Shown: positions 14,112 through 63,942 of the stretch, in pieces
Position numbering within the stretch: the stretch's first letter is position 1
Layout: every line of letters begins with the position of its first letter
From: Deltaproteobacteria bacterium TL4
Lineage (GTDB): Bacteria > SAR324 > NAC60-12
DNA length: 64,000 bases
Direction: 5' to 3'
NCBI GenBank assembly: GCA_051382335.1
Contig: JBBCAX010000094.1
Location: 20,462 to 84,461, forward strand
The notes under the pieces: model-generated
The model's input: the letters and a program-made list of their open reading frames with translations, nothing else
What the model was told of the DNA's origin: nothing
Database searches by the model: none
Made by a program: the position numbers and the translations under genes

Positions 14112-14208
14112 CGGGGTGTGCTTAAGCGAAGCGAGCGCACCAGAAAACGGCTGTCCTCTTTGTGGTATGCTCGCTACGCTTGCGGCACCCTATTTATGCT
14201 CAACGCCT
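14112..14208. repeat. Degenerate REP-type hairpin doublet (family D)
   Basis: Same-orientation diverged copy of 38589-38685 (GGGTG.GCTTAAGCGAAGC.AGCGCACCAGAAA...GCGGCACCCTA.TTATGCTCAAC.CCT). Confidence 0.85.
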
Positions 14209-14224
14209 CTTCTTGGGCAGTCTC

Positions 14225-28867: not shown

Positions 28868-28977
28868 GCCCAATACCCGTGAATGAAATCATGTTCGTAG
28901 TTCCGCCTTTAGGCGGGGTAAGCCTTGCAGAAAAGCCGCCTAAAGGCGGAACTACGAACTTTTTACAATGACTTCAG
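28868..28977. mobile_element. One-ended copy of MITE family B carrying a GTAG REP doublet
   Basis: TIR-like GCCCAATACCCGTGAATGAA directly after the stop codon; perfect 24-bp inverted arms 28893-28916 / 28936-28959; inverted homologue of 52249-52356. Confidence 0.85.
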
Positions 28978-31699: not shown

Positions 31700-31809
31700 A
31701 GGATGACTCTGTTACTGTTACCTGATAAGGCCACGACTCCGTTTCCGCGAATATAGGGACCTTTTCAATTATAGACTTTTTCAATTATAGACTTTCAGAT
31801 AAATCGTTC

Positions 31810-31842
31810 CTGGGAATGCGGGCAAGATGCCCGCGTTCTCAG
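31810..31842. repeat. REP-like palindrome
   Basis: CTGGGAATGCGGGCA-AGA-TGCCCGCGTTCTCAG. Confidence 0.7.
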
Positions 31843-31874
31843 AACAAAACTTTTCTGGAGAAGTATAACAACTC

Positions 31875-31997
31875 GGGGTTGCCTCTAAGTTCGGCCATTT
31901 TGACGGTAGCCCTGGGTTTCGTCCCAGGGGATACTGCGCACATTGTTCCTCGGGGCGAAACCCGAGGCTACCCCTGGCTGAAGTTAGACCCAACCCC
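31875..31997. mobile_element. 123-bp MITE (family E) with 8-bp target duplication and a GTAG REP doublet
   Basis: TIRs GGGGTTGCCTCTAAGTTCGGCCA / rc GGGGTTGGGTCTAACTTCAGCCA; AACAACTC at 31867-31874 and 31998-32005; doublet 31906-31971. Confidence 0.85.
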
Positions 31998-36207: not shown

Positions 36208-36397
36208 TAGACGTTCATTTAAATAAATTCCTTTGAGTCTAACCTAGACGGTGGAGTACCAAAGCTTGCTTTGGCCAAAGCCAAAGAAAGGCCATCGCCT
36301 TTCTGGCCAAAGCAAGCTTTGGCACTCCTGAAACAGCGTTGTTTAAACGGATCACGCAACAGGATGAGTTTTCTGAATATATTTAAATGAACATCTA
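36208..36397. mobile_element. 190-bp MITE (family A) carrying a GGAG REP doublet
   Basis: 17-bp TIR TAGA(C/T)GTTCATTTAAAT; internal GGAGT(A/G)CCAAAGCTTGCTTTGGC inverted pair; inverted near-identical copy at 51734-51923. Confidence 0.9.
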
Positions 36398-38501: not shown

Positions 38502-38588
38502 CGTCTTTATTCAAGAACCTGCGTAAACATCCCGTTGTTCTCACGGCTGCCGACCATGAAATACCAGGTGGTTGTCCGAGAAGGAGTT

Positions 38589-38685
38589 GTAGGGTGCGCT
38601 TAAGCGAAGCAAGCGCACCAGAAACGCTGTCCTCTTGTGGTGCGCTCGCTTCGCTTAAGCGGCACCCTACTTATGCTCAACACCT
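38589..38685. repeat. GTAG REP doublet (family D)
   Basis: GTAGGGTGCGCTTAAGCGAAGCAAGCGCACCA...TGGTGCGCTCGCTTCGCTTAAGCGGCACCCTAC; homologue at 14112. Confidence 0.88.
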
Positions 38686-38691
38686 ATTCTA

Positions 38692-38764
38692 TAGACGTTC
38701 ATTTAAATAAATTCATTTGAGTCTAACCCAGACTGTGGAGTACCAAAGCAAGCTTTGGCACTCC
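38692..38764. mobile_element. Truncated, internally collapsed MITE family A
   Basis: Left TIR TAGACGTTCATTTAAAT followed by a single fused palindrome GGAGTACCAAAGCAAGCTTTGGCACTCC. Confidence 0.85.
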
Positions 38765-38822
38765 TTATAATAGGCGAGCACCGGCTCTTTGTGCTGCCGG
38801 AGCGAATCGGCTGCGCGGCAAA

Positions 38823-50847: not shown

Positions 50848-51294
50848 ATGAGTTCCATTAAGTTAACCATTGAAAGTCAACTGGAACATATCCCTTTAGT
50901 GGGATTGGCTCTTCGCTCTTTCGCGGGACATGCCGCGTTTGATGAGGAAGACAGCTTTATGATTGAACTGGCGGTGGTTGAAGCGGTTACCAATGTTGTC
51001 GAACATGCTTATGAATTACAACCGGGTAACTTGGTTGAGATTGAAGTGTTGATTCAACCGGATGCGATCCTTTGCCACATTTATGATAAAGGCAAACCTA
51101 TGCCCCCAGTTAAAGTGCCGCTCATCAACAGAAGTTACAACGTGGACGATTTAGATTCAATTTCTGATCGAGGGAGAGGAATTGCCTTAATTCACCAAAT
51201 CATGGATGAAGTGACGTATCAACGCTGTGATGAAATTAATTTTCTGACTTTGAAAAAACTATATAAAAATTTAACCACAGATGAACGCAGATGA
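50848..51294 (+). CDS. RsbW-like anti-sigma factor Ser/Thr kinase
   Basis: LAVVEAVTNVVEHAY, YDKGKP, GRGIALI..IMDEV. Confidence 0.9.
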   Translation: MSSIKLTIESQLEHIPLVGLALRSFAGHAAFDEEDSFMIELAVVEAVTNVVEHAYELQPGNLVEIEVLIQPDAILCHIYDKGKPMPPVKVPLINRSYNVDDLDSISDRGRGIALIHQIMDEVTYQRCDEINFLTLKKLYKNLTTDERR

Positions 51295-51302
51295 ACGCAG
51301 AT
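51273..51302. repeat. 10-bp tandem repeat
   Basis: AACCACAGAT GAACGCAGAT GAACGCAGAT. Confidence 0.75.
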
Positions 51303-51325
51303 TATTTATTAAATTTAGAAACAAT

Positions 51326-51523
51326 GAGGAACCCTGCAAATAAATAAATTCAGCAAACTCATCCTGTTGCGCTGTTGCGAGATCCGTTTAAACAACGCTG
51401 TTTCAGGAGTGCCAAAGCTTGCTTTGGCCAGAAAGGCGAAGGCCTTTCTTTGGATGTGACCAAAACAAGCTTTGGCACTCCACAGTCTGGATTAGACTCA
51501 AATGAATTTATTTATCGAAAGTT
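51326..51523. mobile_element. Family A core with different outer termini
   Basis: Internal ~170 bp homologous to 51734-51923; ends GAGGAACCCTGCAAATAAATAAATTC / GAATTTATTTATCGAAAGTT. Confidence 0.8.
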
Positions 51524-51725: not shown

Positions 51726-51733
51726 ATCAGTTA

Positions 51734-51923
51734 TAGATGTTCATTTAAATAGATTCAGAAAACTCCTCCTGTTGCGTGATCCGTTTAAACAACGCTATTT
51801 CAGGAGTGCCAAAGCTTGCTTTGGCCAGAAAGGCGATGGCCTTGCTTTGGTTTTGGCCAAAGCAAGCTTTGGCACTCCACCGTCTGAGTTGGACTCAAAT
51901 GAATTTATTTAAATGAACGTCTA
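51734..51923. mobile_element. 190-bp MITE (family A), TA-flanked
   Basis: TA|TAGATGTTCATTTAAAT...ATTTAAATGAACGTCTA|TA; GGAG REP doublet inside. Confidence 0.92.
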
Positions 51924-51925
51924 TA

Positions 51926-52356
51926 GGACAATACCCGTGCATGAAATTGGAACGTTAATTAATAAACACCAAAATTACAGGAAGTTATATAACTACGGCA
52001 AGTATTCCTGAAGCTACCCACTTAACCCCCATGAGACAAGTCTCACAACGAAGCATGAAAGTAATTGGTAGGCCGGGATTACATGCCCGGCAAAATGAGG
52101 GGCACGTAGTCCCCTTCTACCACTTTCTTACAAAAGCGGGACATTGGTAGGCGGGGATTACATGCCCCGCTTTTCTGATCGTTGAGGTTGCCGGACACGT
52201 AGTTCCGGCCTACCATCGAGGTGTCCCGGCTTAAGTGAGTAGCCATTCCTGACATCATGGTGAAAAGTTTGTAGTTCCGCCTTTAGGCGGCTTTTCAGCA
52301 GGGTTTTTTGCCTAAAGGCGGGACTACAAACTTGAGTTCATGCACGGGTATTGCCC
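51926..52356. mobile_element. MITE family B, TA-flanked, interrupted by nested family C
   Basis: 20-bp TIR GG(A/G)CAATACCCGTGCATGAA (19/20); TA at 51924-51925 and 52357-52358; GTAG doublet near 52267-52331. Confidence 0.9.
52012..52244. mobile_element. 233-bp nested MITE (family C) with 8-bp target duplication and four GTAG REP units
   Basis: TIR AGCTACCCACTTAA / rc GGCTACTCACTTAA; ATTCCTGA at 52004-52011 and 52245-52252; REPs 52067-52091, 52097-52121, 52146-52170, 52190-52214. Confidence 0.88.
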
Positions 52357-52373
52357 TATTGGCGGGAGGGGCC

Positions 52374-53348
52374 TCATCCACTTTTGGAGCATTTTAAACA
52401 AACCGGATTTTCAGCATAGCGTCCTTCCGCATGCAGTTTTCTCAATGCCTTGATGGCAGGACCATTCCAAAGGGATTCAAGGGAACTGGTTTGTATTTCA
52501 CCAAGTTTTAAATAGCGGCTGAACATCGCACAGCAGGGAGTGACTTCTCCGTTTCCCCGGATGTATAAACGTTGCCAGGGTTGGTTGCATTGAAAATTAT
52601 GAACCGCTAACTTGCTTTCTCCGGATAAATGTTCATATTCGCCTTCGGTATCAGGCGTCATGAATTCTTGAAGAACAATAAAATCGACGCGGTCATTCCA
52701 ATACTCTACAAACGCTTCAATTTCATGTTCATTCTGCTTCATTCGTACAAAATTGACGCCTACCAGCGGTAAATCGGCCTGTAATTCTTTCTTTTTTTGT
52801 AAAAACAAAGCAATATTCCTCATCGTCCGTTCGAACTTTCCGTTAATACGAATTTTGGCATAGGTTTCTTCAGTGATGGCGTCAAGACTGAAGCGCAAAC
52901 GTGTCAATCCGGAACGAATGGTTCTTTCGGCAAGCGCTTCAGTCATCACCGAACCATTGGTATTCACCATAATGTCTAAAAAACCGTGTTCTCTTGCCAG
53001 CTCAAACCAATGAATGAGGTCTTTCATTAAAAAAGGTTCATTGTCCCCTTGAAAGGAGACGGAAGGACAATGAAATTTTTGTGCTTCTTTTAATAGCTTT
53101 AAAATCTTGCCAGTGGTCATACGCTCGGGGTATCCAAACTTTGCCTTCAATTCCGGATTACCTTGAGTGCACATAGGACACTGGAAATTACATTGATAGC
53201 TTGATTCAATGTGAAGAAATAAGGGAAAATCGCTTTCGAGCTGAAAACTGTTCACCTGATCCCAGCGTTTACGATATTCAGCAAACGCTTCTCCCTTGAT
53301 TGCGATCAAGCGTTTGATGGCGTCGCCTTCAGTTTTATATTGAATCAT
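52374..53348 (-). CDS. Radical SAM protein with SPASM/twitch domain
   Basis: CNFQCPMC, NTNG, C.QPW......NG.V.PCC...C.KC. Confidence 0.9.
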   Translation of the reverse strand: MIQYKTEGDAIKRLIAIKGEAFAEYRKRWDQVNSFQLESDFPLFLHIESSYQCNFQCPMCTQGNPELKAKFGYPERMTTGKILKLLKEAQKFHCPSVSFQGDNEPFLMKDLIHWFELAREHGFLDIMVNTNGSVMTEALAERTIRSGLTRLRFSLDAITEETYAKIRINGKFERTMRNIALFLQKKKELQADLPLVGVNFVRMKQNEHEIEAFVEYWNDRVDFIVLQEFMTPDTEGEYEHLSGESKLAVHNFQCNQPWQRLYIRGNGEVTPCCAMFSRYLKLGEIQTSSLESLWNGPAIKALRKLHAEGRYAENPVCLKCSKSG

Positions 53349-53355
53349 GATTTCT

Positions 53356-54414
53356 CTACATTTTTCCATAAAGCTCAATAATGATTTCGGGAGTAAACAC
53401 ACTTTTCCAGTTTTCTCCCAAGGCATTGGTGAGCGGTTTTTCCATTTTGAGCGTCATCGCCACCATACGTTCGAGCATATCCGCATTGACCTCTTGAGTG
53501 ACCTTGCCCGGAAGCGGGACACCGAACTTTTTCAGCATTTCACGCATTTCAAGGACATATTCGCCATAGTAAGACTCCAACGTGTTAAAGGCGATGCAGT
53601 TAGCGACACCGTGATGATAGCCTAATTCCAGACTGAGCCCATAAGACAAGGCGTGACAAATACCCACCTCAGAATTGACAATGGAGGCTCCCCCCAAATA
53701 AGAGGCAACCATCAATTTATCGCCGTCATCTTCGTAAAGCGCTTCTTTACACAATTCCAAGGCTTTGGCGGCATACGCTTTGGAGAGTTCGTTGATCATG
53801 GTCCCCGTCAAGGACTCAACACAGTGAATAAAACAATCCATAGCGGTATAAAACGCCTGGTCTTTAGGGACTGTTTTCAGCAGCGAAGAATCGCATAAAA
53901 TAGCATCAAACATACTATAATCGCTATTGATTCCAAATTTTTTATCAACTCCGGTCAACACCGCGGTTCGGCTTGCCTCCGCGCCTGTCCCTGAGAGTGT
54001 AGGAATCCCGACTTTGAAGACTGCTCGATTTTTGACAAGATCCCACCCTTGGTAATTGGCAGAAGAGCCTTCATTTTTCAACACCACTGAAAGCGCTTTT
54101 CCAACATCCAGGGCACTTCCTCCACCAATGGCAATTATCGCGAGAGGGTCGGCTTTCCCCTGATTAACGACCTCGTCTTTAATGGCATCCACTTGTAGCG
54201 TTTTGGGTTCGTCTGTGGTATCAACCCATATCAGCAAATCTTGATCACTGAGATCAATCCTTTTCATCAAGTCTGTTTTCTGATGAACATGATCAACCAC
54301 ATAAATATAATATTCGGCTTCTGAAGCCCTTGCGGGCAATAGCTCAGCGAGTCGTTTCAAGGTTCCTGCACCAAAGAGGATGCGAGGCACTTGCTTGAAT
54401 ATTTTTGCTATCAT
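53356..54414 (-). CDS. Iron-containing alcohol dehydrogenase family, KdnB-like sugar-acid 8-oxidase
   Basis: GGGSALD.GK, YQGWDLVK, PTLSGTGAE.SRTAVL, DCFIHCVESL, CHALSYGLS, HHG. Confidence 0.8.
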   Translation of the reverse strand: MIAKIFKQVPRILFGAGTLKRLAELLPARASEAEYYIYVVDHVHQKTDLMKRIDLSDQDLLIWVDTTDEPKTLQVDAIKDEVVNQGKADPLAIIAIGGGSALDVGKALSVVLKNEGSSANYQGWDLVKNRAVFKVGIPTLSGTGAEASRTAVLTGVDKKFGINSDYSMFDAILCDSSLLKTVPKDQAFYTAMDCFIHCVESLTGTMINELSKAYAAKALELCKEALYEDDGDKLMVASYLGGASIVNSEVGICHALSYGLSLELGYHHGVANCIAFNTLESYYGEYVLEMREMLKKFGVPLPGKVTQEVNADMLERMVAMTLKMEKPLTNALGENWKSVFTPEIIIELYGKM

Positions 54415-55043
54415 AATTTTCCCTGTTGTTTATAGGATAAGAGTTTTTCCAGAATCAGGATATCCACCTCATCATCGATTTCGAAGTTATAGATTTTGGG
54501 AATGACTTTTTTGTTAATTCGTGTTCCAAACCACTGCTCTGCCAACGCCAGTGAGCGTTTCAGAATATAGACATTTCCATCATCATAAAAAAAACCCTGA
54601 TAATCCTGGCGCCTCCCGTTGTTGTGAGTTCCAAACTCACGATATTTACAATACCATCCGGTGGCAAGATTGTCGTAGTCGTCACTCAAATATGAGGCAA
54701 TGCACTCATCAATCAAAGCAGGCGCTCTTAAAGGTGACGTCGGTTGCAACACAATCAAATGTTCCGCTTCGGGACGCTTTTCAGCAATATTCTTGAGCAC
54801 TGAAATAGTGGTTGCCTCATCGGTCGCAAGCTCCGCGGGACGCATCATGACAGGCGCCCCATAAGCTCGAGCAACTGCCGCGATTTCCTCATCATCGGTA
54901 GAAACCAGGAAATCATCCAGTTGCTTTGACTGTTTCGCTGATTCAATAGACCAGGCAATCAGCGGTTTTCCCCCAATTTTTTTAATATTCTTACCAGGAA
55001 TCCCTTTGCTTCCTCCCCGTGCGGGAATAACGCCTAAAAACAT
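54411..55043 (-). CDS. Acylneuraminate cytidylyltransferase (NeuA family)
   Basis: IPARGGSKGIPGKN, VSTDD, LQPTSPLR, EIDD. Confidence 0.92.
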   Translation of the reverse strand: MFLGVIPARGGSKGIPGKNIKKIGGKPLIAWSIESAKQSKQLDDFLVSTDDEEIAAVARAYGAPVMMRPAELATDEATTISVLKNIAEKRPEAEHLIVLQPTSPLRAPALIDECIASYLSDDYDNLATGWYCKYREFGTHNNGRRQDYQGFFYDDGNVYILKRSLALAEQWFGTRINKKVIPKIYNFEIDDEVDILILEKLLSYKQQGKL

Positions 55044-55044
55044 A

Positions 55045-56229
55045 TCATCCTCTAAGCTTGGTTAATGCGGAAATAGTGGATTTAATCAGATATTCAAAAT
55101 CTTCATCACTCATGGTCAGGTGAAAAGGAAATGAAATCATATTATCGTAGAAATGATCAATGTTCGGACAGTGTGCCTCTCCAAACCCCATTTTCTTGAA
55201 CAGATCATAGCGATACAGTGGATAATATTGAGCAATCACCTTGATGCGATATTCCCCGCTTAACATTTTGATTAAGTCATGATTGGTTTTGCCCCAACGT
55301 TTTCCATCATAACGCGCCGCTAATAAATGGTGACTATGGGTTGAAGGCTCATCACATTTTTGCAGCACAAGCTCATTGAAAGAAGCGAGCCTTTGCTGAA
55401 AAAGTTTGGCTCGTTTTCTCCGGGCGTCCGTTAACGCTCCCAACCGTTTGAGCAGGGCACTTCCCAAGGCCACTTGCGCTTCACAAATTGTAAACTTATG
55501 AGGCCAAACCCCTTCAAGGTTCAAATCCACATTGCTCATCGCGGGTTGCCAATATTCGCTCTGATTTTCAAAAGGAGCATGTCCGTTGTGTCTCAATCCA
55601 CGGATGTTTTTTGCCATTTTCTCATCTTTGACGAGTAACAACCCACCTTCTCCAAGGGTTGTGATGTTTTTTTGGGCATGAAAACTATAGGCGCCAAAAT
55701 CGCCAAAGGTTCCACAGGCTTTCTTGTGTTTAAATGAACCCAACGCCTGAGCACAGTCTTCAATCAAATAAATCCCTTCCGCCTGGGCGTATGCCGCAAT
55801 GGCTTCAATTTCGGGATCTATCATTCCATAGAGATGGACGACAATAATGGCTTTGGTTCGTTGGGTCTTCAGCCGTTTGATAGAGTCTAAGGAAACGGTG
55901 AAAGAGTCAGGGTCAATATCGGCCCATTTCAACGTGCCGCCCACACGGGCAAAAGGAATGGCGGTAGAACAATAGGTGTGTCCCGGGACAATCACTTCAT
56001 CGCCCGGCTTTATTTGAATCAAGTCCGCGATTATTTCTAAGGCATGAGTACAACTGGTCATGGCAAAACAATGGGGGCTTCCGACATAATTGGCAAAATC
56101 AGCTTCGAATTGTTTCTGATAAGGCCCTTGTGTTTGCGGGTCTCCGTGACGCATTACTTCCGCAACAATGTTGATCTCTTCTTCTGTATAGTCAATTGAT
56201 TTTCCTGACCAATTAATTTTAAAACTCAT
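55045..56229 (-). CDS. DegT/DnrJ/EryC1/StrS aminotransferase
   Basis: PGDEVIVP, VVHLYG, IEDCAQA, SFHAQKNITTLGEGG. Confidence 0.92.
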   Translation of the reverse strand: MSFKINWSGKSIDYTEEEINIVAEVMRHGDPQTQGPYQKQFEADFANYVGSPHCFAMTSCTHALEIIADLIQIKPGDEVIVPGHTYCSTAIPFARVGGTLKWADIDPDSFTVSLDSIKRLKTQRTKAIIVVHLYGMIDPEIEAIAAYAQAEGIYLIEDCAQALGSFKHKKACGTFGDFGAYSFHAQKNITTLGEGGLLLVKDEKMAKNIRGLRHNGHAPFENQSEYWQPAMSNVDLNLEGVWPHKFTICEAQVALGSALLKRLGALTDARRKRAKLFQQRLASFNELVLQKCDEPSTHSHHLLAARYDGKRWGKTNHDLIKMLSGEYRIKVIAQYYPLYRYDLFKKMGFGEAHCPNIDHFYDNMISFPFHLTMSDEDFEYLIKSTISALTKLRG

Positions 56230-56313
56230 AAAACTCCTTTGAAACTAAAATTAGTTGAATACGAACGATGCCGCCGTGGATAAACGCAGATAATTTTAAA
56301 AAATTCTTGATAA

Positions 56314-58578
56314 CTAAATATTAAAATGTTCCAAACGATCTAAAGCGATCCAAAATCCTTCTCCGTTGTTTTTATGCCCTTGCCAGATTTCGGGAATAAA
56401 CGAGGATTCCGGTGTCGTTTTTTTCAAGGTTTTACTTAATGAATAAAAATCAATTTCGCCTTCGCCTATTTGCAAACCTTCACCATCAACACCCTTAGCA
56501 TCTACGATATGTAAATGCGCGGTATGAGGTCCCACTTTTTCGACAAACTCATCAAAGGACCACTTAAAATAACTACAGGCCAACTTGGAGTGGGAAATAT
56601 CCAGACAAATCCGGGAATGGTGTTTTTTACAAAAACGTGCGATTTCGTCGGGATCCATAAAAAGATTGTGAAAACGTTGTCCGCCAAAGAGCCATGGGAA
56701 TGGAGGCATGGTTTGGGGAATGAGTTCAACGCCCTCTGTCTTCAGCTCTGAGAGTGACCTCGATAATTGATCATAGTAGGGCTTTCTTTCAGAAGGAGGA
56801 AGGGCTTCGTCTTCAGTAAAACCACCTACATTCACGATAATCAGAGGTCGTGTGGCTCTCTTAAAAAAAGGTTTGATCGCCTTCGTGATATCAATCACCC
56901 TTTGTAATTCATGGACGGAACGTTGACGATAATCGTTATCAAAGGTGCAAAGGTTCAGCGTATGATCCCCTGCAAACAACTCAGGACTGTGTACCACAAA
57001 ATCAAGATCAAACGCTGTCGAAAAGTGACTGAGCAATTCTTCTTCCAAATCACTGTAGCTCAAATGAAATTCCAGCAAGCTGACGTTGGTCATACTTTGA
57101 ATCTGGTCCATGTCATGATAGCGAACAGGCAATCCCCACGGCCTTGAAAATTGAAAGTTTCGATGAGACACCTCTGTATTTTCCAAGTCTGTACGATAAA
57201 AGAAATCTCCCGCCTTGAAGTTTCGTTTCGCGATTTTGCCAATCAGATCTTTTTTTAGATAAGGCGGAAGTCCTTTGCCTGGACTTTTGATGTGGATCAT
57301 GGATTCTAAAATAACTTGTCCTTCTTTGAGCTCACAATTGATAACCAGACTTTTTCCAAGGGTTTCCCGATTAATCAGCTCTCCCTGGGAAATCGTTTTG
57401 ATCTGAGCTTGTCCCATTGCCGATTCAATCTCACGAATCCCCTCAACCATCTGTTTAAATTCTTCAGGAAGCAAACTCACCCGATGATCGTTACCTTCCA
57501 TCGTTTTATCAAGGGTAAAGTGTTTTTCAATCACTTTTGCCCCCAAACCGACGGCGGCAAGAACCACGTTAATTCCTCGTTCATGTCCTGAATAGCCGAC
57601 AAAACAATCACCCAAGACCTTCAAGCGGTTCATATACTGCAGTTGGATGTCTTTAAACGGCGCGGGGTAGGTTGAATTGCAATGCAGGAGGACATATTGC
57701 GCGCCGAGGTTGCGAAGTAACTTAACGGAATCTACAATTTCATTTTCAGTGGTCATGCCTGTGGAACAAATCAAAGGCTTCCCCGACCGAGCCAACCCTT
57801 CAAGCAACTCATGATTGGTAAAATCTGCGGAGGCGACTTTGTATGCGGGCATGCCATAGTTTTCCAACTGTAGAAAACTTTCCATATCCCAAGGGGTACA
57901 CAAGGGAATCAAAGCCAACTGTCTGCAGTAGTCAAACAATTGGAAAAGTTGGTCATTGGGCAGTTGAAACCGGGTCAACAGATCCAGGGTGTATTGTGAG
58001 CCTAAATCCTCTTGAATATCCTTCGTTTCGCCTTCGTTCTTGTACAAGGATTTTAAATTTCTCATTTGGAACTTGGCACAGTGAGCTCCGGATTCTTTGG
58101 CTTTTTCCACAAGTTTTTTAGCAAGTTCAAAATCACCATTATGGTTGTTCCCAATTTCCGCGACGATAAACGTAGGTGAGGCGTCATCCAGTCGGAAACT
58201 GTCAATTTCCAAACGTTTGGTTCGTTTTTTGGCAATAGCGACCAAGCGTTGGTGTTCGTTAAGGATGGGAACTAAGGAGATTCGTTCAGAAAAGATCGCA
58301 CGGATTTTATCAGGATTATCTTTGTCTCTCGCAAATTGAAAATTTTTGTTGACGAGACAGCGTACCGATTGCTCTAAACTGTGGTTTGCGATCCTGGGAT
58401 TGATCAACCAGCGTCTAAAATCTCCATCCGTCAACACGCCTTCCAACTCTCCACTCTGAGTTACCGCAAAGATGCATTGTTCCTCATTATTCTCAATTTT
58501 AATGAGAGCATTCAGGATGCTTTCTTCATAGTAAATAATAAATTTTGAAAGATTTTTATCAATAATCATAAGGCTCAT
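56314..58578 (-). CDS. Nonulosonate synthase (NeuB) fused to N-terminal CBS pair, SAF domain and C-terminal isomerase-like TIM barrel
   Basis: GVLTDGD.RR (CBS); AEIGNNHNG, KVASAD, LHCNSTYP, GYSGHE, IEKHFTLD; CLD.SH, HLHIVDA, PEIWQGH. Confidence 0.92.
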   Translation of the reverse strand: MSLMIIDKNLSKFIIYYEESILNALIKIENNEEQCIFAVTQSGELEGVLTDGDFRRWLINPRIANHSLEQSVRCLVNKNFQFARDKDNPDKIRAIFSERISLVPILNEHQRLVAIAKKRTKRLEIDSFRLDDASPTFIVAEIGNNHNGDFELAKKLVEKAKESGAHCAKFQMRNLKSLYKNEGETKDIQEDLGSQYTLDLLTRFQLPNDQLFQLFDYCRQLALIPLCTPWDMESFLQLENYGMPAYKVASADFTNHELLEGLARSGKPLICSTGMTTENEIVDSVKLLRNLGAQYVLLHCNSTYPAPFKDIQLQYMNRLKVLGDCFVGYSGHERGINVVLAAVGLGAKVIEKHFTLDKTMEGNDHRVSLLPEEFKQMVEGIREIESAMGQAQIKTISQGELINRETLGKSLVINCELKEGQVILESMIHIKSPGKGLPPYLKKDLIGKIAKRNFKAGDFFYRTDLENTEVSHRNFQFSRPWGLPVRYHDMDQIQSMTNVSLLEFHLSYSDLEEELLSHFSTAFDLDFVVHSPELFAGDHTLNLCTFDNDYRQRSVHELQRVIDITKAIKPFFKRATRPLIIVNVGGFTEDEALPPSERKPYYDQLSRSLSELKTEGVELIPQTMPPFPWLFGGQRFHNLFMDPDEIARFCKKHHSRICLDISHSKLACSYFKWSFDEFVEKVGPHTAHLHIVDAKGVDGEGLQIGEGEIDFYSLSKTLKKTTPESSFIPEIWQGHKNNGEGFWIALDRLEHFNI

Positions 58579-58602
58579 TTGGGATTGAGGAAGGAACGTT
58601 CT

Positions 58603-60516
58603 TTAGTTATAGAGTTCAATACCTTCGAAGGCCATATCTTCCAGTTGAACATGATAGACTTCCCGGTAGTGTTTTACCGTTGCAGCCAGAGCTTGCTCCA
58701 TATTGCCGATTTCGGCAATATCTTTCATATACCATTGAATAAAATGCCCAATACGCTGGGATCCCAATAAGTCGTCAAAATGATTCAACTCCCGTCTCCA
58801 TAACGATAAATCTCCTATAGTTGAGTCTCCTTGAGCGACTTTGAGAATAGCGTTTTTGAATTCTTTCAAAGAGGTATAGACAATTTGCTGCTGTGGCTGT
58901 CGATAGAAAGGGTGTTTCAACCACCCTGAACAATCCCAGTGGATCGCACGATAGCCTGAAATGCCGGCCAAAATACCCGCGGAGTTGATACTGAAACACA
59001 CTGAAAGATGGGTCTTTGCCGCAACCGTTAAGGCGGTTGTTAAAGGCGAGCAGACAAGCAGTCGTCCCTGTTCTACCAAAGACAGCATTTTGGAAATGAT
59101 CGAGGATCCTTGTAATAGAGGCGAAAAACTTTCAATATCCCTGTCTTTACTTTTGATGATCCCCGCCCACGTCGGATTTTCATTCAAAACATCCAACATG
59201 GCCAAGTAAAACTGAGATAACGATTCTGGAGACTGATGAATATTGTAGCAGGCTCCTGAGTCAAAAATAGAAATAATAAAATCATGTTTCTGACAAAACG
59301 CCTCCACTTCCTTACTTTTATGGGGTTCTGTAAAAATGGTTCCTGAGGGTAGAAAGAAACGGCTTGAAACCCCTTTGTTTTGAGTAAAATAAGCATTCAT
59401 TTTGCCCCACACAAAAAACAGATGTTGAGGCGTTAAGTGATTGGTTTGCAAATCGTAAATGTAATGCGACCATTGAAATCCCAACATCATTCCGCCCGCC
59501 GACTCTACGGCTTTTGCCTGAACCCCCTGTAACCAGGAACAATCCTGGTGCTGTATAAGGATCTTGACCTGAAAATGCCGGTATAGCGCTGAAAGGACCG
59601 TATGCAGAATCGTGTACTGCAGTTTATAGAAATGAAACCAAAAGGGCTGAGCGGTATTGATTTGAAATAGCTGTCGAATCAATAAAACCATTTGACGGTT
59701 AGGCAACTTCACCCAACGTTTTCTTCCGAGTAAATCCACCCATTTAAATCCGTACCGAAGACAGGTGTCTCTGGCTTGTTCTGTGACAGGAGCATCGGAA
59801 CGATCCATGTAGTAAACTAAATCAAAGTCAGCCGCTTTTACCGCAGAAGACCAAAGATTTTCCCTGCGGTCCGTGGCTTCCGCATGAAAATATTCAACCC
59901 AAACGGAGGGTTTGATCGTGTTAATGTTGGTGATTATGGGTTTCCCTTCTATCTGAGTGAGGACTAGCTGAAGTAACCGCGCAAAGGGTCGAAGAGGGGC
60001 TAAATATACAAAAAACTGGAGCGATTGCTGAATCTGAAAACCCCGTTTTTGGTAAAATTCCATGAAAATCGAATTAATGGGATTTCTGGCAATAAAAAGA
60101 GTGTGTTCCGCCTTTAATGAGTTCCTTTCAAATTCAACCATTGTGATGAAGGCGATGCTGGGGATCAGTTTTTCGGCCAAATAAGACTTCGTCATTTTTT
60201 GAAACCAGGGAGGTTCCTCACGGATATAACGAGCGCAAAAAGCATTAAGGCATTGATTGAGATTTTCATGAAGATAGTACGTTGCCGCGTAACCTTGTTC
60301 GTCTTTAGTGTTAAGCGTCAAGTTCGCGGGTTTAAACAATGTGAGCTGAAAATGCTTATTGAGAAAGATGAGGACGTAATGCGCCAAGGTCGAAATCTGA
60401 TGCTCATCATAGCGTATCTCAACTTTGCTCCATAGCAATCGTTTCAATAAAATCAGTATCTCCCCGACTCCTAATTTTTCCACCCAAATTATTTCCATAA
60501 AGTTATTCCTGTTCAC
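58603..60516 (-). CDS. Uncharacterised surface-polysaccharide biosynthesis protein (putative GT-B fold transferase)
   Basis: 637 aa soluble ORF inside the glycan operon; G.Q.SH, FFVWG, IIK.K and FDD..G..RI resemble GT-B-like capsule proteins. Confidence 0.55.
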   Translation of the reverse strand: MNRNNFMEIIWVEKLGVGEILILLKRLLWSKVEIRYDEHQISTLAHYVLIFLNKHFQLTLFKPANLTLNTKDEQGYAATYYLHENLNQCLNAFCARYIREEPPWFQKMTKSYLAEKLIPSIAFITMVEFERNSLKAEHTLFIARNPINSIFMEFYQKRGFQIQQSLQFFVYLAPLRPFARLLQLVLTQIEGKPIITNINTIKPSVWVEYFHAEATDRRENLWSSAVKAADFDLVYYMDRSDAPVTEQARDTCLRYGFKWVDLLGRKRWVKLPNRQMVLLIRQLFQINTAQPFWFHFYKLQYTILHTVLSALYRHFQVKILIQHQDCSWLQGVQAKAVESAGGMMLGFQWSHYIYDLQTNHLTPQHLFFVWGKMNAYFTQNKGVSSRFFLPSGTIFTEPHKSKEVEAFCQKHDFIISIFDSGACYNIHQSPESLSQFYLAMLDVLNENPTWAGIIKSKDRDIESFSPLLQGSSIISKMLSLVEQGRLLVCSPLTTALTVAAKTHLSVCFSINSAGILAGISGYRAIHWDCSGWLKHPFYRQPQQQIVYTSLKEFKNAILKVAQGDSTIGDLSLWRRELNHFDDLLGSQRIGHFIQWYMKDIAEIGNMEQALAATVKHYREVYHVQLEDMAFEGIELYN

Positions 60517-60519
60517 AAG

Positions 60520-61224
60520 TTATTGGGCAAATAAACGTCTCGCGAGTAATTCAGCGAACTCAAAATCAATAGGCTCATCAATATCTACCGAATGCTCTCG
60601 GGACATTAAATGGAATCCACAATCATCTCCAATGATTCGGTTTTTCTCCATCAAGACTGAGCGTCGACTGACATAAACAGCGCCATTAGGGTGATATAGC
60701 TTGGGTAATGATTGAAAAACGCCTGTTTCCCCTTCAATCGGAGATCCCTGGAACGGTGAGATCTTTCCCTGTCTTTCATGAAACATCCACTCCGGTCGTT
60801 CCGAAACTTCCTTGACGGTTATCGCTGAGTCGAAACTTGCGTCTTCTTCGAGGATTTTGATACAGGCATCAATATCTTCCGGTTGCACAAAAGGCGTCGT
60901 GGGCTGCATCGTAATTACTAAATTCACAGGGATTCCGGTTTGTTGCTCCACAAACCGGACCGCATGTTGGCTAACTAATTCGCTTGGCACGTCCTCAGCC
61001 AACTCCGCAGGTCTTGTAAAAGGGACATCCGCTCCACATTCTCTGGCGATTCTTGCTATCTCGGCATGGTCCGTGGAAATCACCAAACGATCTATTCTTT
61101 GCGACTTTAACGCGGCTTTGATTGAATAGCTGATCAAGGGTTGCCCATTCAAAAGTTTAATATTCTTCAGGGGTATTCTTTTTGAGCCCCCTCTCGCCAT
61201 AATAATACCTAAGTTCATTTCCAC
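60520..61224 (-). CDS. Acylneuraminate cytidylyltransferase (NeuA family), second copy
   Basis: ARGGSKRIPLKN, PF.RP.ELA.D, QPTTPF, NGAVY, DIDE..DF. Confidence 0.92.
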   Translation of the reverse strand: MEMNLGIIMARGGSKRIPLKNIKLLNGQPLISYSIKAALKSQRIDRLVISTDHAEIARIARECGADVPFTRPAELAEDVPSELVSQHAVRFVEQQTGIPVNLVITMQPTTPFVQPEDIDACIKILEEDASFDSAITVKEVSERPEWMFHERQGKISPFQGSPIEGETGVFQSLPKLYHPNGAVYVSRRSVLMEKNRIIGDDCGFHLMSREHSVDIDEPIDFEFAELLARRLFAQ

Positions 61225-61294
61225 ACCGTTTTATACAAAAGAACAAGTTCCAGAGCTTTCAATTTTCTGCTAATGAGCCTTGGAATACTGACCG

Positions 61295-62677
61295 CTATCG
61301 TTGATAATCCACTGAAATTTTACCAGAATCAAGCTGTTGAAGTTCTTTTAAGGAAGCATCCACTTTCTTGAACGCCTCCACGACTTCTTTCATATCCTCC
61401 AAAGTATTTGGAGCGTGAATATGATAAAACCAGAGACATTTTTCCTTGATTAATTGTTCTCCTACAGGACATAAACCCTTCTTATAATCAAGATGCTGAG
61501 GATTTTCGCATAATGAAAAAGGATATCCTTTGTCACCAAAGGCGATCTTTTTGAGGAAAAGTGGATTTTCATACAACAACCGGAGATATCCTGTGCCCAC
61601 AGGCATCCCTTCGGCCCTTAACGCCGCGACGATGACTGCTCTGGGAACACCAGCCTTTTTTGCGTTATACTGCCAACCCAACAAATGGGGAACAAATTTT
61701 ATATAACTTGGCGGTTGATAAAACTCAATCCATTCCAGGCCTTGTAACTGATGGAGCAGGTAATTGGTGTTTTGGGTTCGAATTTCATTCAATTTATCTA
61801 ATTTTCCCAACTGAACGCTTGCCAGTGCTGCCGTCATTTCAGTCATTCTGAAATTGAATCCGACCACATTGACCATTTCGGCAACAGAGTCGTTCTCGTT
61901 GATAATGGTTTCTCCATGATTGCGGATCAGCCTGCACTTTTTGGCAAGCTGTACATCATTGGTGATGATGACTCCGCCTTCGCCAGACATGAAATTTTTG
62001 GTTTCCTGAAGACTGAAGATTCCCGCATCCCCAATGGAGCCTACTTTTTTACCTTTGTATAAGGTTCCAGGCGCTTGTGCGCAATCCTCAAGCACACGAA
62101 GTTGATGTTTCCGGGCAATAGCGCAGATTTCATCCATCTCCGCAGAAGTTCCCAACAGGTGAACCAACAGAATGGCCTTGGTTTTTGAAGTGATCTTTTC
62201 TTCGATTTTCTGTGGATCTATGCATAAACTGTAAGGATCAACATCGACAAAAACAGGAATGGCACCGCAAGGAATAATGGCTGTTCCGGTTGCGGTAAAT
62301 GACATACACGTCACAATAACCTCATCTCCCGGGCCAATATCACACGCGGCCAACGCCGTTGTGATTCCAGAGGTTGCGGAGTTGACGGCAATGGCGTAAG
62401 CACTTCCGAAATACTGACTGCACCGGGCTTCAAAGGTTTTAACTTTAGGACCTCCTAAAAAATTCCAGTAATTAGTCGGAAACGTCTCAGCCTCCACACT
62501 TTTCATCGTCAGCAATTGTTTTACATCACTGCCTGGTCCGCCAGCATAGCGGGAAAATTCGTTATTTCTAAAACAATCCAAAACGGACAAAATCTCTTCT
62601 TTGTCAACATTCACTGAATTCTTAAATGGGGCTTTTCTTACGGGGTCGCCGCCGAAGAGTGCCAACTTCTTTTTCAT
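61295..62677 (-). CDS. DegT/DnrJ/EryC1/StrS aminotransferase
   Basis: LALFGG.PVR, NSATS, GPGDEVIV, EDCAQAPG, SLQETKNF.SGEGG, GFNFRMTE. Confidence 0.92.
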   Translation of the reverse strand: MKKKLALFGGDPVRKAPFKNSVNVDKEEILSVLDCFRNNEFSRYAGGPGSDVKQLLTMKSVEAETFPTNYWNFLGGPKVKTFEARCSQYFGSAYAIAVNSATSGITTALAACDIGPGDEVIVTCMSFTATGTAIIPCGAIPVFVDVDPYSLCIDPQKIEEKITSKTKAILLVHLLGTSAEMDEICAIARKHQLRVLEDCAQAPGTLYKGKKVGSIGDAGIFSLQETKNFMSGEGGVIITNDVQLAKKCRLIRNHGETIINENDSVAEMVNVVGFNFRMTEMTAALASVQLGKLDKLNEIRTQNTNYLLHQLQGLEWIEFYQPPSYIKFVPHLLGWQYNAKKAGVPRAVIVAALRAEGMPVGTGYLRLLYENPLFLKKIAFGDKGYPFSLCENPQHLDYKKGLCPVGEQLIKEKCLWFYHIHAPNTLEDMKEVVEAFKKVDASLKELQQLDSGKISVDYQR

Positions 62678-62694
62678 CCATCGCCTTTCGTGTC

Positions 62695-63681
62695 TTACCT
62701 GTTTTTAGTATAGTTTTTTACTTGATCCATGATTTTAATCACTTGCAAACCATCTTGCCCTTCACAGGGAAAAGAGCTTCGCGCTCCCTCACAATATTCA
62801 ATGATTTGTTGAACAATCGCAAGCAGCGTTGATTCATTTTCAATCGGTGTGACGCTTTCTTTTTTTGTTTCATTCAATTCTTTGTAGTGTGCATAGCGGA
62901 GACTCTCTTCATAAGGAAGGTAAACGCAACATCCTCCATTTTCTGTGACCAGAATCCGGCCTTCACTCCCAATCAGGTCGACTTCCAGAATCAATTCATA
63001 TTTGAAGCCTACCGTAATGAGGTGTCCCACAACATGTTTGTCAAACTGGAGCATCAAGTCATAAGACGGTTCCTGATCCTCAACAAGATCAGGCCGCTCC
63101 AAGACAGAAATGTTTTTGGGAACGCCTCCATAAAATAACATTAAATCCACCATGTGACTTCCGATAGCCCAAAAACGGTTTGGCGCAGAAACACGAATTG
63201 ATCGCAGTTGCCCAATCTTTCCTTGATCCAACCAGTTTTTTGCTTGCGTAAAGGTGGAAAACCAACGTCTTGAATGATGGACAATCAATGCGGTATTGGC
63301 GTTACCGCAGTGCCGAACCATCGCTTCCGCGTCTTCAACGCTCAGGGCCATCGGCTTTTCACACCAAATCACTTTCGGCGTAATGAACTCCAAGGTCGTT
63401 AGCACGTGTTGGGTATGAAATTCATGGGGAGTACAAATACTCAGCACATCAATGGGTACCGCTTTGAGCATCGTAGGTAAAGCAGAAAAGACGGGTACGT
63501 CAGGACAGCGATGCTGAAATGATTTCAAATTGTTTTCATCAATATCGCAAGCCGCGACAATTTTGATTTTTTCACTAAAATGAAGATAGGCGCCTGCATG
63601 TGACGAAACGACTTTTCTTTTTGAGTCTTCATCAAAACGAGAACCAATTTGTCCCAGGCCTACGATTGCCACAGGTATCAT
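62695..63681 (-). CDS. Gfo/Idh/MocA family oxidoreductase
   Basis: IVGLGQIG, ICTP...H, CEKPMA, GSH.VD; AGGA RBS before ATG 63681. Confidence 0.9.
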   Translation of the reverse strand: MIPVAIVGLGQIGSRFDEDSKRKVVSSHAGAYLHFSEKIKIVAACDIDENNLKSFQHRCPDVPVFSALPTMLKAVPIDVLSICTPHEFHTQHVLTTLEFITPKVIWCEKPMALSVEDAEAMVRHCGNANTALIVHHSRRWFSTFTQAKNWLDQGKIGQLRSIRVSAPNRFWAIGSHMVDLMLFYGGVPKNISVLERPDLVEDQEPSYDLMLQFDKHVVGHLITVGFKYELILEVDLIGSEGRILVTENGGCCVYLPYEESLRYAHYKELNETKKESVTPIENESTLLAIVQQIIEYCEGARSSFPCEGQDGLQVIKIMDQVKNYTKNR

Positions 63682-63942
63682 TCCATTCCTTCTTGCATGA
63701 GTCCCACGACTCTTTGATTTTAACGTTTGCTTTGATGAGCTGAGCCCACTTATGAATTTCATTTTTTTATCAAAATAGCAATGCATGAATAATACCTTCG
63801 CTAAAATTTGAGTTTTCTCAATCCTGCGCCTGTTAAGCTTTTGAAATCAGGCTTCAACTCCAATCAGCCTGCGAACCGGTTCCCTGAGTGAAGCGACTGT
63901 CTTGAAAGTCAAGTGGTTTTTAAGATATTTTGAACATAATTT

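Follow-up and report, generated by a model that had tools for sequence, protein, structure and literature searches.

REP hairpin pairs in the shells of miniature transposons: a nested stack in the SAR324 bacterium TL4 and its relatives in the same genome

How REPs spread is an open question, the usual answer being RAYT alone. REPINs are generally regarded as slow, as inherited vertically and as separate from MITEs; in the available text of three papers they are described as a replicating unit, slowly moved by RAYT (PMC3116915, bioRxiv 10.1101/2021.07.10.451892, PMC8266576). In the 64,000-nucleotide stretch of Deltaproteobacteria bacterium TL4 that we analysed (hereafter the window), one site carries a stack of at least three miniature transposon-type elements, probably four, every one of them wrapping a REP hairpin pair. 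Are such pairs moved by RAYT, do they ride in the elements of other enzymes, or do they serve these elements? The stack is carried by contig C94 (assembly of 6.6 Mb in 445 contigs) and is enclosed by two convergent host genes, whose 3' ends face it. Its parts are as follows, in window positions, strands being given for the genes.

50848–51294 (+): left neighbour, anti-sigma-type HATPase_c_2 gene, pointing towards the stack
51372–51514: second A copy, truncated, both ends lost, 92% identical
51732–51733: left TA target duplication of A
51734–51923: MITE A, 190 bp, 24-bp inverted ends, TA duplication
51803–51878: GGAG-tagged REP doublet of A
51919–51928: the 10 bases left of B, made of A's right end and target; 7/10 fit to the B target consensus, no repeat right of B
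51929–52353: MITE B, 184 bp without C and one duplication; IS4-type ends
52004–52011: left 8-bp target duplication of C, B's own sequence
52012–52244: element C, 233 bp, a 123-bp MITE (C0, DUF6399-type ends) plus insertion X
52026–52133: module X, 110-bp insertion in the left inverted repeat of C0, boundaries ambiguous by 2 bases
52068–52120: GTAG-tagged REP doublet of X
52147–52213: GTAG-tagged REP doublet of C0; related doublets in two other shells
52245–52252: right 8-bp target duplication of C
52271–52327: GTAG-tagged REP doublet of B
52374–53426 (-): right neighbour, radical SAM/SPASM gene, its stop codon 20 bases from B

Compared with shuffled sequence, the stack is far more strongly folded (z = -24). 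As a preliminary description of the locus had stated, the window contains no transposase: only host families were found in the 32/59 ORFs scanned, around the stack and elsewhere. The flanking genes had no DNA-level match among 30 relatives, and for the right-hand gene only 28–31% identical matches were obtained, in 1/44 family genomes. Directly past the HATPase stop (51275–51305) there is a short tandem repeat, matched in 5 relatives, which we take to resemble the repeats found beside GxxExxY genes.

Element A had been delimited as 190 bp between two TA, with a GGAG doublet inside, and both statements agree with the sequence at 51734–51923. BLAST retrieved 68 full-length copies from the genome and, when elements were paired by their ends, TA was present on both sides in 53/69 A-shell elements. 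With its 24-bp terminal inverted repeats round a short non-coding core A has the build of a MITE, and it has the TA duplication of an IS630-derived one; we take this duplication to point to IS630. No IS630 with A's ends, as the proposal of an IS630-type enzyme would require, was found in the genome: none of 8 DDE_3 loci is bounded by A's end, several of them being cut by contig ends. This end has 194 matches in its own genome, single one-mismatch matches in 4/63 other genomes of the order and, in metagenome scans, 0 and 25 matches, none paired and all of the kind expected by chance. Fold-back duplication was rejected as an origin, the two linkers of A not being complementary, nor those of B.

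Element B had been given as 190 bp between two TA. Its two parts (51929–52011 and 52253–52353) add up to 184 bp, and the target duplication of its family is 10 bp long, with a palindromic consensus; the longer figure arose because 3 target bases had been counted on each side. The single GTAG doublet had been recognised correctly. There are 15 full-length copies in the genome (BLAST), with terminal inverted repeats of 19 bp, and the flanks agree at 9/10 bases or more in 15/20 elements paired by their ends. The same ends delimit an IS4 element on contig C85 (1497–3213, 1717 bp) with Nterm_IS4 and DDE_Tnp_1 and one internal stop, whose C-terminal piece alone scores 109 against NCBIfam IS4 (cut-off 115); the assembly has this IS with 17 right and 12 left ends, and the listed B-end positions are mostly near contig edges. 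To judge by its ends, which are common with this multi-copy IS4, B is an IS4-type MITE, and an IS630/TA origin is ruled out by the 10-bp duplications and the IS4 ends. Both ends of the MITE are like the IS4 left end over 19–22 bases, where the likeness stops. A tyrosine transposase between B-type ends is absent, the single long element with B's ends encoding a DDE enzyme, and B's end was found in 2/88 genomes of the class. The copy in the stack has no matching duplication: its two flanks agree at 6/10, each alone fits the consensus at 7/10 and 6/10 (read by eye), and no other B end among 253 matches has either of them at 9/10 or more. We infer that the left duplication was lost by adjacent deletion or by recombination between copies.

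Element C is indeed, as described previously, 233 bp long between exact 8-bp duplications (52004–52011 and 52245–52252), for which the chance of an exact 8-bp match at fixed boundaries is about 2e-5. Full-length copies number 7 in the genome (BLAST); in 18/29 C-family elements paired by their ends at least 7/8 flanking bases are alike, and most types of C shell have terminal inverted repeats of 19–26 bp. When C is aligned with its 123-bp copy C0, a single gap of 110 bp opens within the left inverted repeat. The stack consists of four modules, since C holds this insert, X, which the preliminary description had missed; the two GTAG doublets that it had counted in C are present, one in C0 and one in X. 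Reading by eye the 25 right ends of X in the genome, we found that 18 run on into the rest of a C-type end, at either shell end and with differing cargoes; of the remaining seven, three belong to a tandem run, another three have different surroundings and the last is ambiguous. Because these 18 sit in C-type ends, on either side and with varied cargo, X is likely a separately mobile module that prefers the ends of C. An autonomous partner for X was not found in the genome; one IS110 is present in the assembly. A 54-bp near-perfect palindrome (G000:C342:15959-16012), in which the outer end of C meets the start of X head to head, points to a fold-back event.

The 8-bp duplication of C had been attributed to an IS1595-type enzyme. 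The ends of C border DUF6399 ORFs instead, and IS1595 was discarded as a partner, its lone hit being on contig C277, where none of 108 C-end matches is located. The 23-base end of C occurs in at least 112 stretches of other genomes and adjoins a DUF6399 ORF in two of them (L056 and L086). Remnants of DUF6399 ORFs are present in the TL4 genome, one of them on contig C63 upstream of a C-type end, and the 8-bp shells D and H are likewise found at the ends of such remnants. Three residues (D143, D198 and E455) are invariant among 88 DUF6399 homologues, 16 of which have a weak match to the integrase core (rve) and 17 a weak match to an IS256 variant. The nearest structures to the AlphaFold model (pLDDT 89) are the Hermes and ISCth4 transposases, with weak similarity (best E 6e-4, TM-score at most 0.33). 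DUF6399 is predicted on these grounds to be an RNase H-like DDE transposase with a D-D-E triad. A literature search retrieved no paper on DUF6399, and the ends of C provide further evidence for an unannotated transposase family. An autonomous IS with a REP near its end was rejected as the parent of C: the ORF in L056 reaches within 5 bases of the element end, and in the one apparent case of a REP-bearing IS (L090 and L119) the REP is read as part of another, TA-flanked insert that sits within the IS end. At another locus (L274, G008:C63) a CRISPR-like repeat-spacer array directly follows a DUF6399 remnant.

To place the stack in its genomic context, we took a census of eleven REP families, comprising 321 doublets, of which 288 remained after dropping 33 at contig edges. 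With 14 shell patterns, taken from the same genome after inspection, and counting doublets only and no monomer arrays, 168/288 doublets were located between both ends of one shell, 86/288 at most 130 bases from one shell end and 34/288 near none; the same census of 3000 random sites gave 14 between both ends, 83 beside one and 2903 near none. By eye, about 10–14 of the 34 distant doublets are truly shell-free, the others having decayed or unlisted ends. Doublets standing mostly free, the outcome named beforehand as speaking against colonised shells, are not what the genome contains, as 254/288 are at shells; at this proportion within 130 bases of a shell end, the pattern is not that of a free doublet that multiplies. 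The pairing of inverted ends with target duplications recurs in other copies (53/69 for A, 15/20 for B, 18/29 for C). A stricter, pattern-free search for a flanking inverted repeat was positive for 54/80 doublets of A's REP and 10/23 of B's, against 3/1000 random sites. REP monomers are often found in tandem arrays outside shells, one family having 170 monomers and 26 doublets. The doublets of the eleven families are thus mostly in DDE shells; and because most doublets adjoin transposon ends, REP pairs likely spread on unrelated transposons and not by their own enzyme.

The association is not one of fixed partners. A's REP is found with four types of end (A, B, C2 and J), and 5/11 REP families, plus further inserts, are present in the C shell. 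Twelve pairs were aligned over doublet and spacer: the 123-bp forms in an A shell and a D shell, one TA-type and the other 8-bp-type, are identical at 67/79 bases, A and a 164-bp B-shell form are alike at 80/98, and C0 and G at 71/93. The shell-by-cargo matrix shows free combination of shells and doublets. Most shell families seen carry a hairpin pair, three hairpin-free MITE families are multi-copy in the genome, and shells of the C, D, H and I types repeatedly have a length of 123 bp, as do hairpin-free C shells. Since the target duplications lie outside the inverted ends and differ among copies, shell and doublet together are shown to be the unit that, on this evidence, moved.

Nesting is also widespread. 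C-type shells with varied cargo are present inside 4/20 B copies, of three subtypes, 26–27 bases from the REP tag, one of the four insertions being in the opposite orientation. The outer flanks are themselves repeats at 49/193 ends of A, 22/94 of B and 21/108 of C, compared with 97/3000 random sites. Because C in B recurs and outer flanks are often repeats, the stack is, as judged from these copies, an extreme case of a common habit.

The repeats inside the shells have the build of REPs, with a palindrome behind a tetranucleotide tag and an arrangement as inverted doublets, and the genome encodes RAYT-type genes, with 19 matches to NF047646, 5 of them above the cut-off. RAYTs flanked by each REP type had been named as a check; among 18 RAYT loci this holds for the REPs of A and B, and none carries the REP of C0 or X. 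An array of A's REP, the same as in the stack, precedes a truncated RAYT on contig C60, intact RAYTs on contigs C302 and C414 are flanked by the REP that B carries in the stack, and others have REP arrays of their own. Arrays of A's REP on three further contigs (G000:C220, C358 and C405) surround a porin-like gene and small secreted-looking genes, among them two ORFs of 150 aa that are related to each other, instead of a RAYT. At G000:C336:2638-3703 and C345:9147-9557, RAYT domains are in frame within DNA methylase ORFs.

The C shell could be followed into other genomes, where 60 distinct complete copies were present among the matches listed. Structured inserts, organism-specific and folding at -0.15 to -0.52 kcal/mol per base, fill 43/60 of these; 14/60, in Desulfobacterales-type records, are hairpin-free shells of 123–126 bp that fold at -0.04 to -0.12 kcal/mol per base; and 3/60, of 62–69 bp, are near-empty, so that near-empty shells do exist, empty ones having been sought (all counts among the matches listed). 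One Methylococcaceae genome has the C shell both empty, at 69 bp (L074, L112), and filled, at 145 bp (L094). What separates the two forms is a hairpin pair bordered by a short direct repeat, and this difference could be an insertion or a deletion. Some inserts of other genomes may belong to Ssn nucleases. The hairpin-free shells of 123–126 bp (L051, L098 and others) have a conserved 9-mer that resembles a DnaA box. In L117 (Crenothrix polyspora) and L113, tandem repetition of the hairpin cassette has lengthened the C shell to 383 and 1302 bp, and the exact 8-bp duplications are kept. Composites are also found in G009, a genome of the same family and another genus, which has composites of B, two of C0 in a decayed state, and a third composite in common with TL4. 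Composites common to another genus hint at horizontal movement; they could reflect horizontal transfer or patchy loss.

Taken together, we consider it probable that REP doublets are passengers, which rarely get into DDE shells but multiply with them once inside; the proposal that REP doublets colonise DDE-mobilised shells held up on its own tests. A doublet would first enter between two IS ends in a rare event, perhaps by insertion or recombination into an existing MITE, after which deletions would trim the interior to a workable length; this route of capture and some other route are about equally probable. The workable length would be about 123 bp, which recurs in DUF6399-type shells whatever the cargo. 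Composites would then be moved whole by a DDE transposase with the same ends, the REP pairs travelling as passengers, and B and C0 are likely mobilised in trans by the IS4 transposase and the predicted DUF6399 transposase, respectively. The DDE enzyme would copy a composite far faster than RAYT copies free doublets, and composites would come to dominate: because MITE duplication occurs at about 1e-5 and REPIN duplication at about 1e-8 per host generation, according to the available text of Bertels and Rainey (bioRxiv 10.1101/2021.07.10.451892), a few captures would swamp the free doublets. Insertion of elements into one another, in part at preferred spots, would build up stacks in intergenic space. 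For the present stack the likely order is B first, then C0 into the B hot spot, with X entering the C0 end before or after; A would have come to lie beside B, whose left duplication may have been lost as proposed above. Several observations do not favour passengers: no autonomous partner was found in the genome for A or X, nor a RAYT with C's REP among the 18 loci; the capture step has no direct footprint; both B ends are like the IS4 left end, which plain internal deletion fails to explain; the shell patterns of the census came from the genome itself after inspection, and doublets alone were counted; the fold matches of DUF6399 are weak; and three non-REP MITE families also thrive in the genome, so that success does not require a hairpin.

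The main rival of the passenger reading is that the hairpin pair is a selected, cis-acting helper of transposition, its cruciform joining close ends and replacing protein bending. The presence of a hairpin pair in most shell families seen, the unrelated hairpins in the same C shell across phyla (among the matches listed) and the position of doublets a few bases from the inverted ends in many families would all agree with such a role. We nevertheless consider it unlikely: the Desulfobacterales C shells of 123–126 bp, 14/60 among the matches listed, do without a hairpin, and three hairpin-free families are multi-copy in the genome. Arm pairing is without sign of selection among 44 A copies, although decay after insertion would be expected of a helper too. 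A second and general route of spread for hairpin repeats, in which many unrelated DDE ends in repeat-rich bacteria systematically take up a locally abundant pair, a hinge helps very short elements, pairs are carried between genera free of RAYT and X parasitises shell ends, strikes us as rather improbable. That RAYT is the main mover, inserting doublets repeatedly and independently into resident MITEs as mere targets, is very unlikely. Intact RAYTs with cognate REPs are present, in several pairs of shells the homology stops no more than about 10 bases from the tags, and TnpA-REP cuts near REPs at CT or CA (PMC8266576, available text). Copies of one composite nevertheless share their whole interior while their outer duplications differ, which indicates movement of the whole, and no family here has many empty shells beside filled ones, only single C shells of 54 and 59 bp. 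The RAYT cut signature is not diagnostic, since several inverted ends finish in CA, that of a hairpin-free family too.

Two further explanations concern what the host, or the assembly, might have done. Had host selection kept the composites as portable RNA hairpins, acting as terminators or mRNA stabilisers, one would welcome the facts that 1/191 shells is inside an ORF, that the stack itself is between convergent 3' ends, and that among the 122 shells with clear context those between divergent genes are too few (23 against 35.6 expected, p = 0.04); in the same set convergent genes flank 22 shells, against 20.7 expected, with no excess, and tandem genes 77, against 65.8. This placement speaks of avoidance of genes and promoters rather than of terminator use. 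In 44 A copies, moreover, rare changes per site are as frequent in the arms (0.019–0.022) as in linkers (0.015–0.030), with 0.015–0.017 in the ends, compensated arm changes number 2 and one-sided ones 46, and the Rfam search returned no family at threshold. Portable RNA-structure cassettes, offered as the alternative in the preliminary description, receive no support from arm changes, gene context or Rfam, and we hold this explanation to be scarcely probable at all. A mis-join, the families being real and only this stack a product of repeat mis-assembly from short reads, is extremely unlikely. The B copy in the stack without its duplication and the 445 contigs, many of them broken at these repeats, would fit a mis-join; against it, C's duplication is exact and equal to B's own sequence, the same nesting recurs with other cargo and in the other orientation, and neither B flank is found elsewhere at 9 or 10/10 among the 253 end matches.

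How does this arrangement relate to known systems? The preliminary description had considered it a candidate for an undescribed system; the outcome is a variant of the known type II MITEs, not a new class. Type II prokaryotic MITEs have only their inverted ends in common with an IS (PMC10969869, available text), and Correia, Chunjie and IMU are examples of MITEs (PMC3184786, available text). Ends common with an autonomous IS and an unrelated interior are found for B and C; A is without a partner. The present elements are like type II MITEs, in the text available to us, in being short, non-coding, multi-copy and strongly folding, with inverted ends, target duplications and the ends of autonomous IS. 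They differ from type II MITEs as described there in that the interior is an exchangeable element of another system, a REP doublet, and that about a dozen end types in one genome are so built. With REPINs, as presented in the available text, they share GTAG- or GGAG-tagged palindromes, inverted doublets, intergenic location and cognate RAYTs flanked by the same REPs; unlike REPINs, most doublets here are inside or beside DDE ends, with DDE-type duplications. The accessible parts of PMC3733652 and PMC6006769 describe Pseudomonas double inverted repeats, with degenerate GTAG units and unrelated stem-loops, and TIRtrons/TIRYT, both of which resemble our elements in that they, too, are multi-copy and join inverted repeats to REP units. 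Both flank tyrosine transposase genes, whereas the ends here are those of IS4 and DUF6399 DDE elements, and in those accessible parts they are described without target duplications (PMC3733652, PMC6006769).

IS ends serve as targets for other elements, those of the IS4321/IS5075 type. Nesting at a preferred spot, C into B and X into the end of C, is comparable to this and to the insertion of IS1397, IS621 and IS1594 into REPs (PMC3184786, available text). In the IS1397 type, as described in that text, the IS is inside the REP, whereas here the REP pair is inside the transposable unit and moves with it. No description of REP doublets as exchangeable MITE cargo was found in the available text of PMC3733652, PMC6006769, PMC3184786, PMC11602168, PMC10969869, PMC3116915, PMC8266576, PMC11893778 and bioRxiv 10.1101/2021.07.10.451892, nor in our literature search, which covered mainly freely accessible main text. 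What the present data add is the shell-by-cargo matrix, the filled and hairpin-free C shells across phyla, the B hot spot and module X. If the doublets are passengers, enzymes other than RAYT would determine how numerous and how diverse REPs become, and counting REPs would be no gauge of RAYT activity. The C shell provides natural test material, one shell being available with several cargoes of similar length and in a hairpin-free version, with the enzyme named for B and predicted for C.

The window has further elements of these families. Two shells abut at 31785–31997, one TA-type with a GGAG doublet and the other a 123-bp, 8-bp-type D with a GTAG doublet; a full A copy is present at 36208–36397, an E shell broken by part of A at 38568–38767, a truncated B at 28871–28963 and an E-type doublet in a decayed copy at 14114–14213. 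To the right of the stack, on the minus strand at 52374–63786, is a cluster resembling nonulosonic (pseudaminic-type) sugar synthesis, with a NeuB-like synthase, two cytidylyltransferases and two aminotransferases, all under curated cut-offs.
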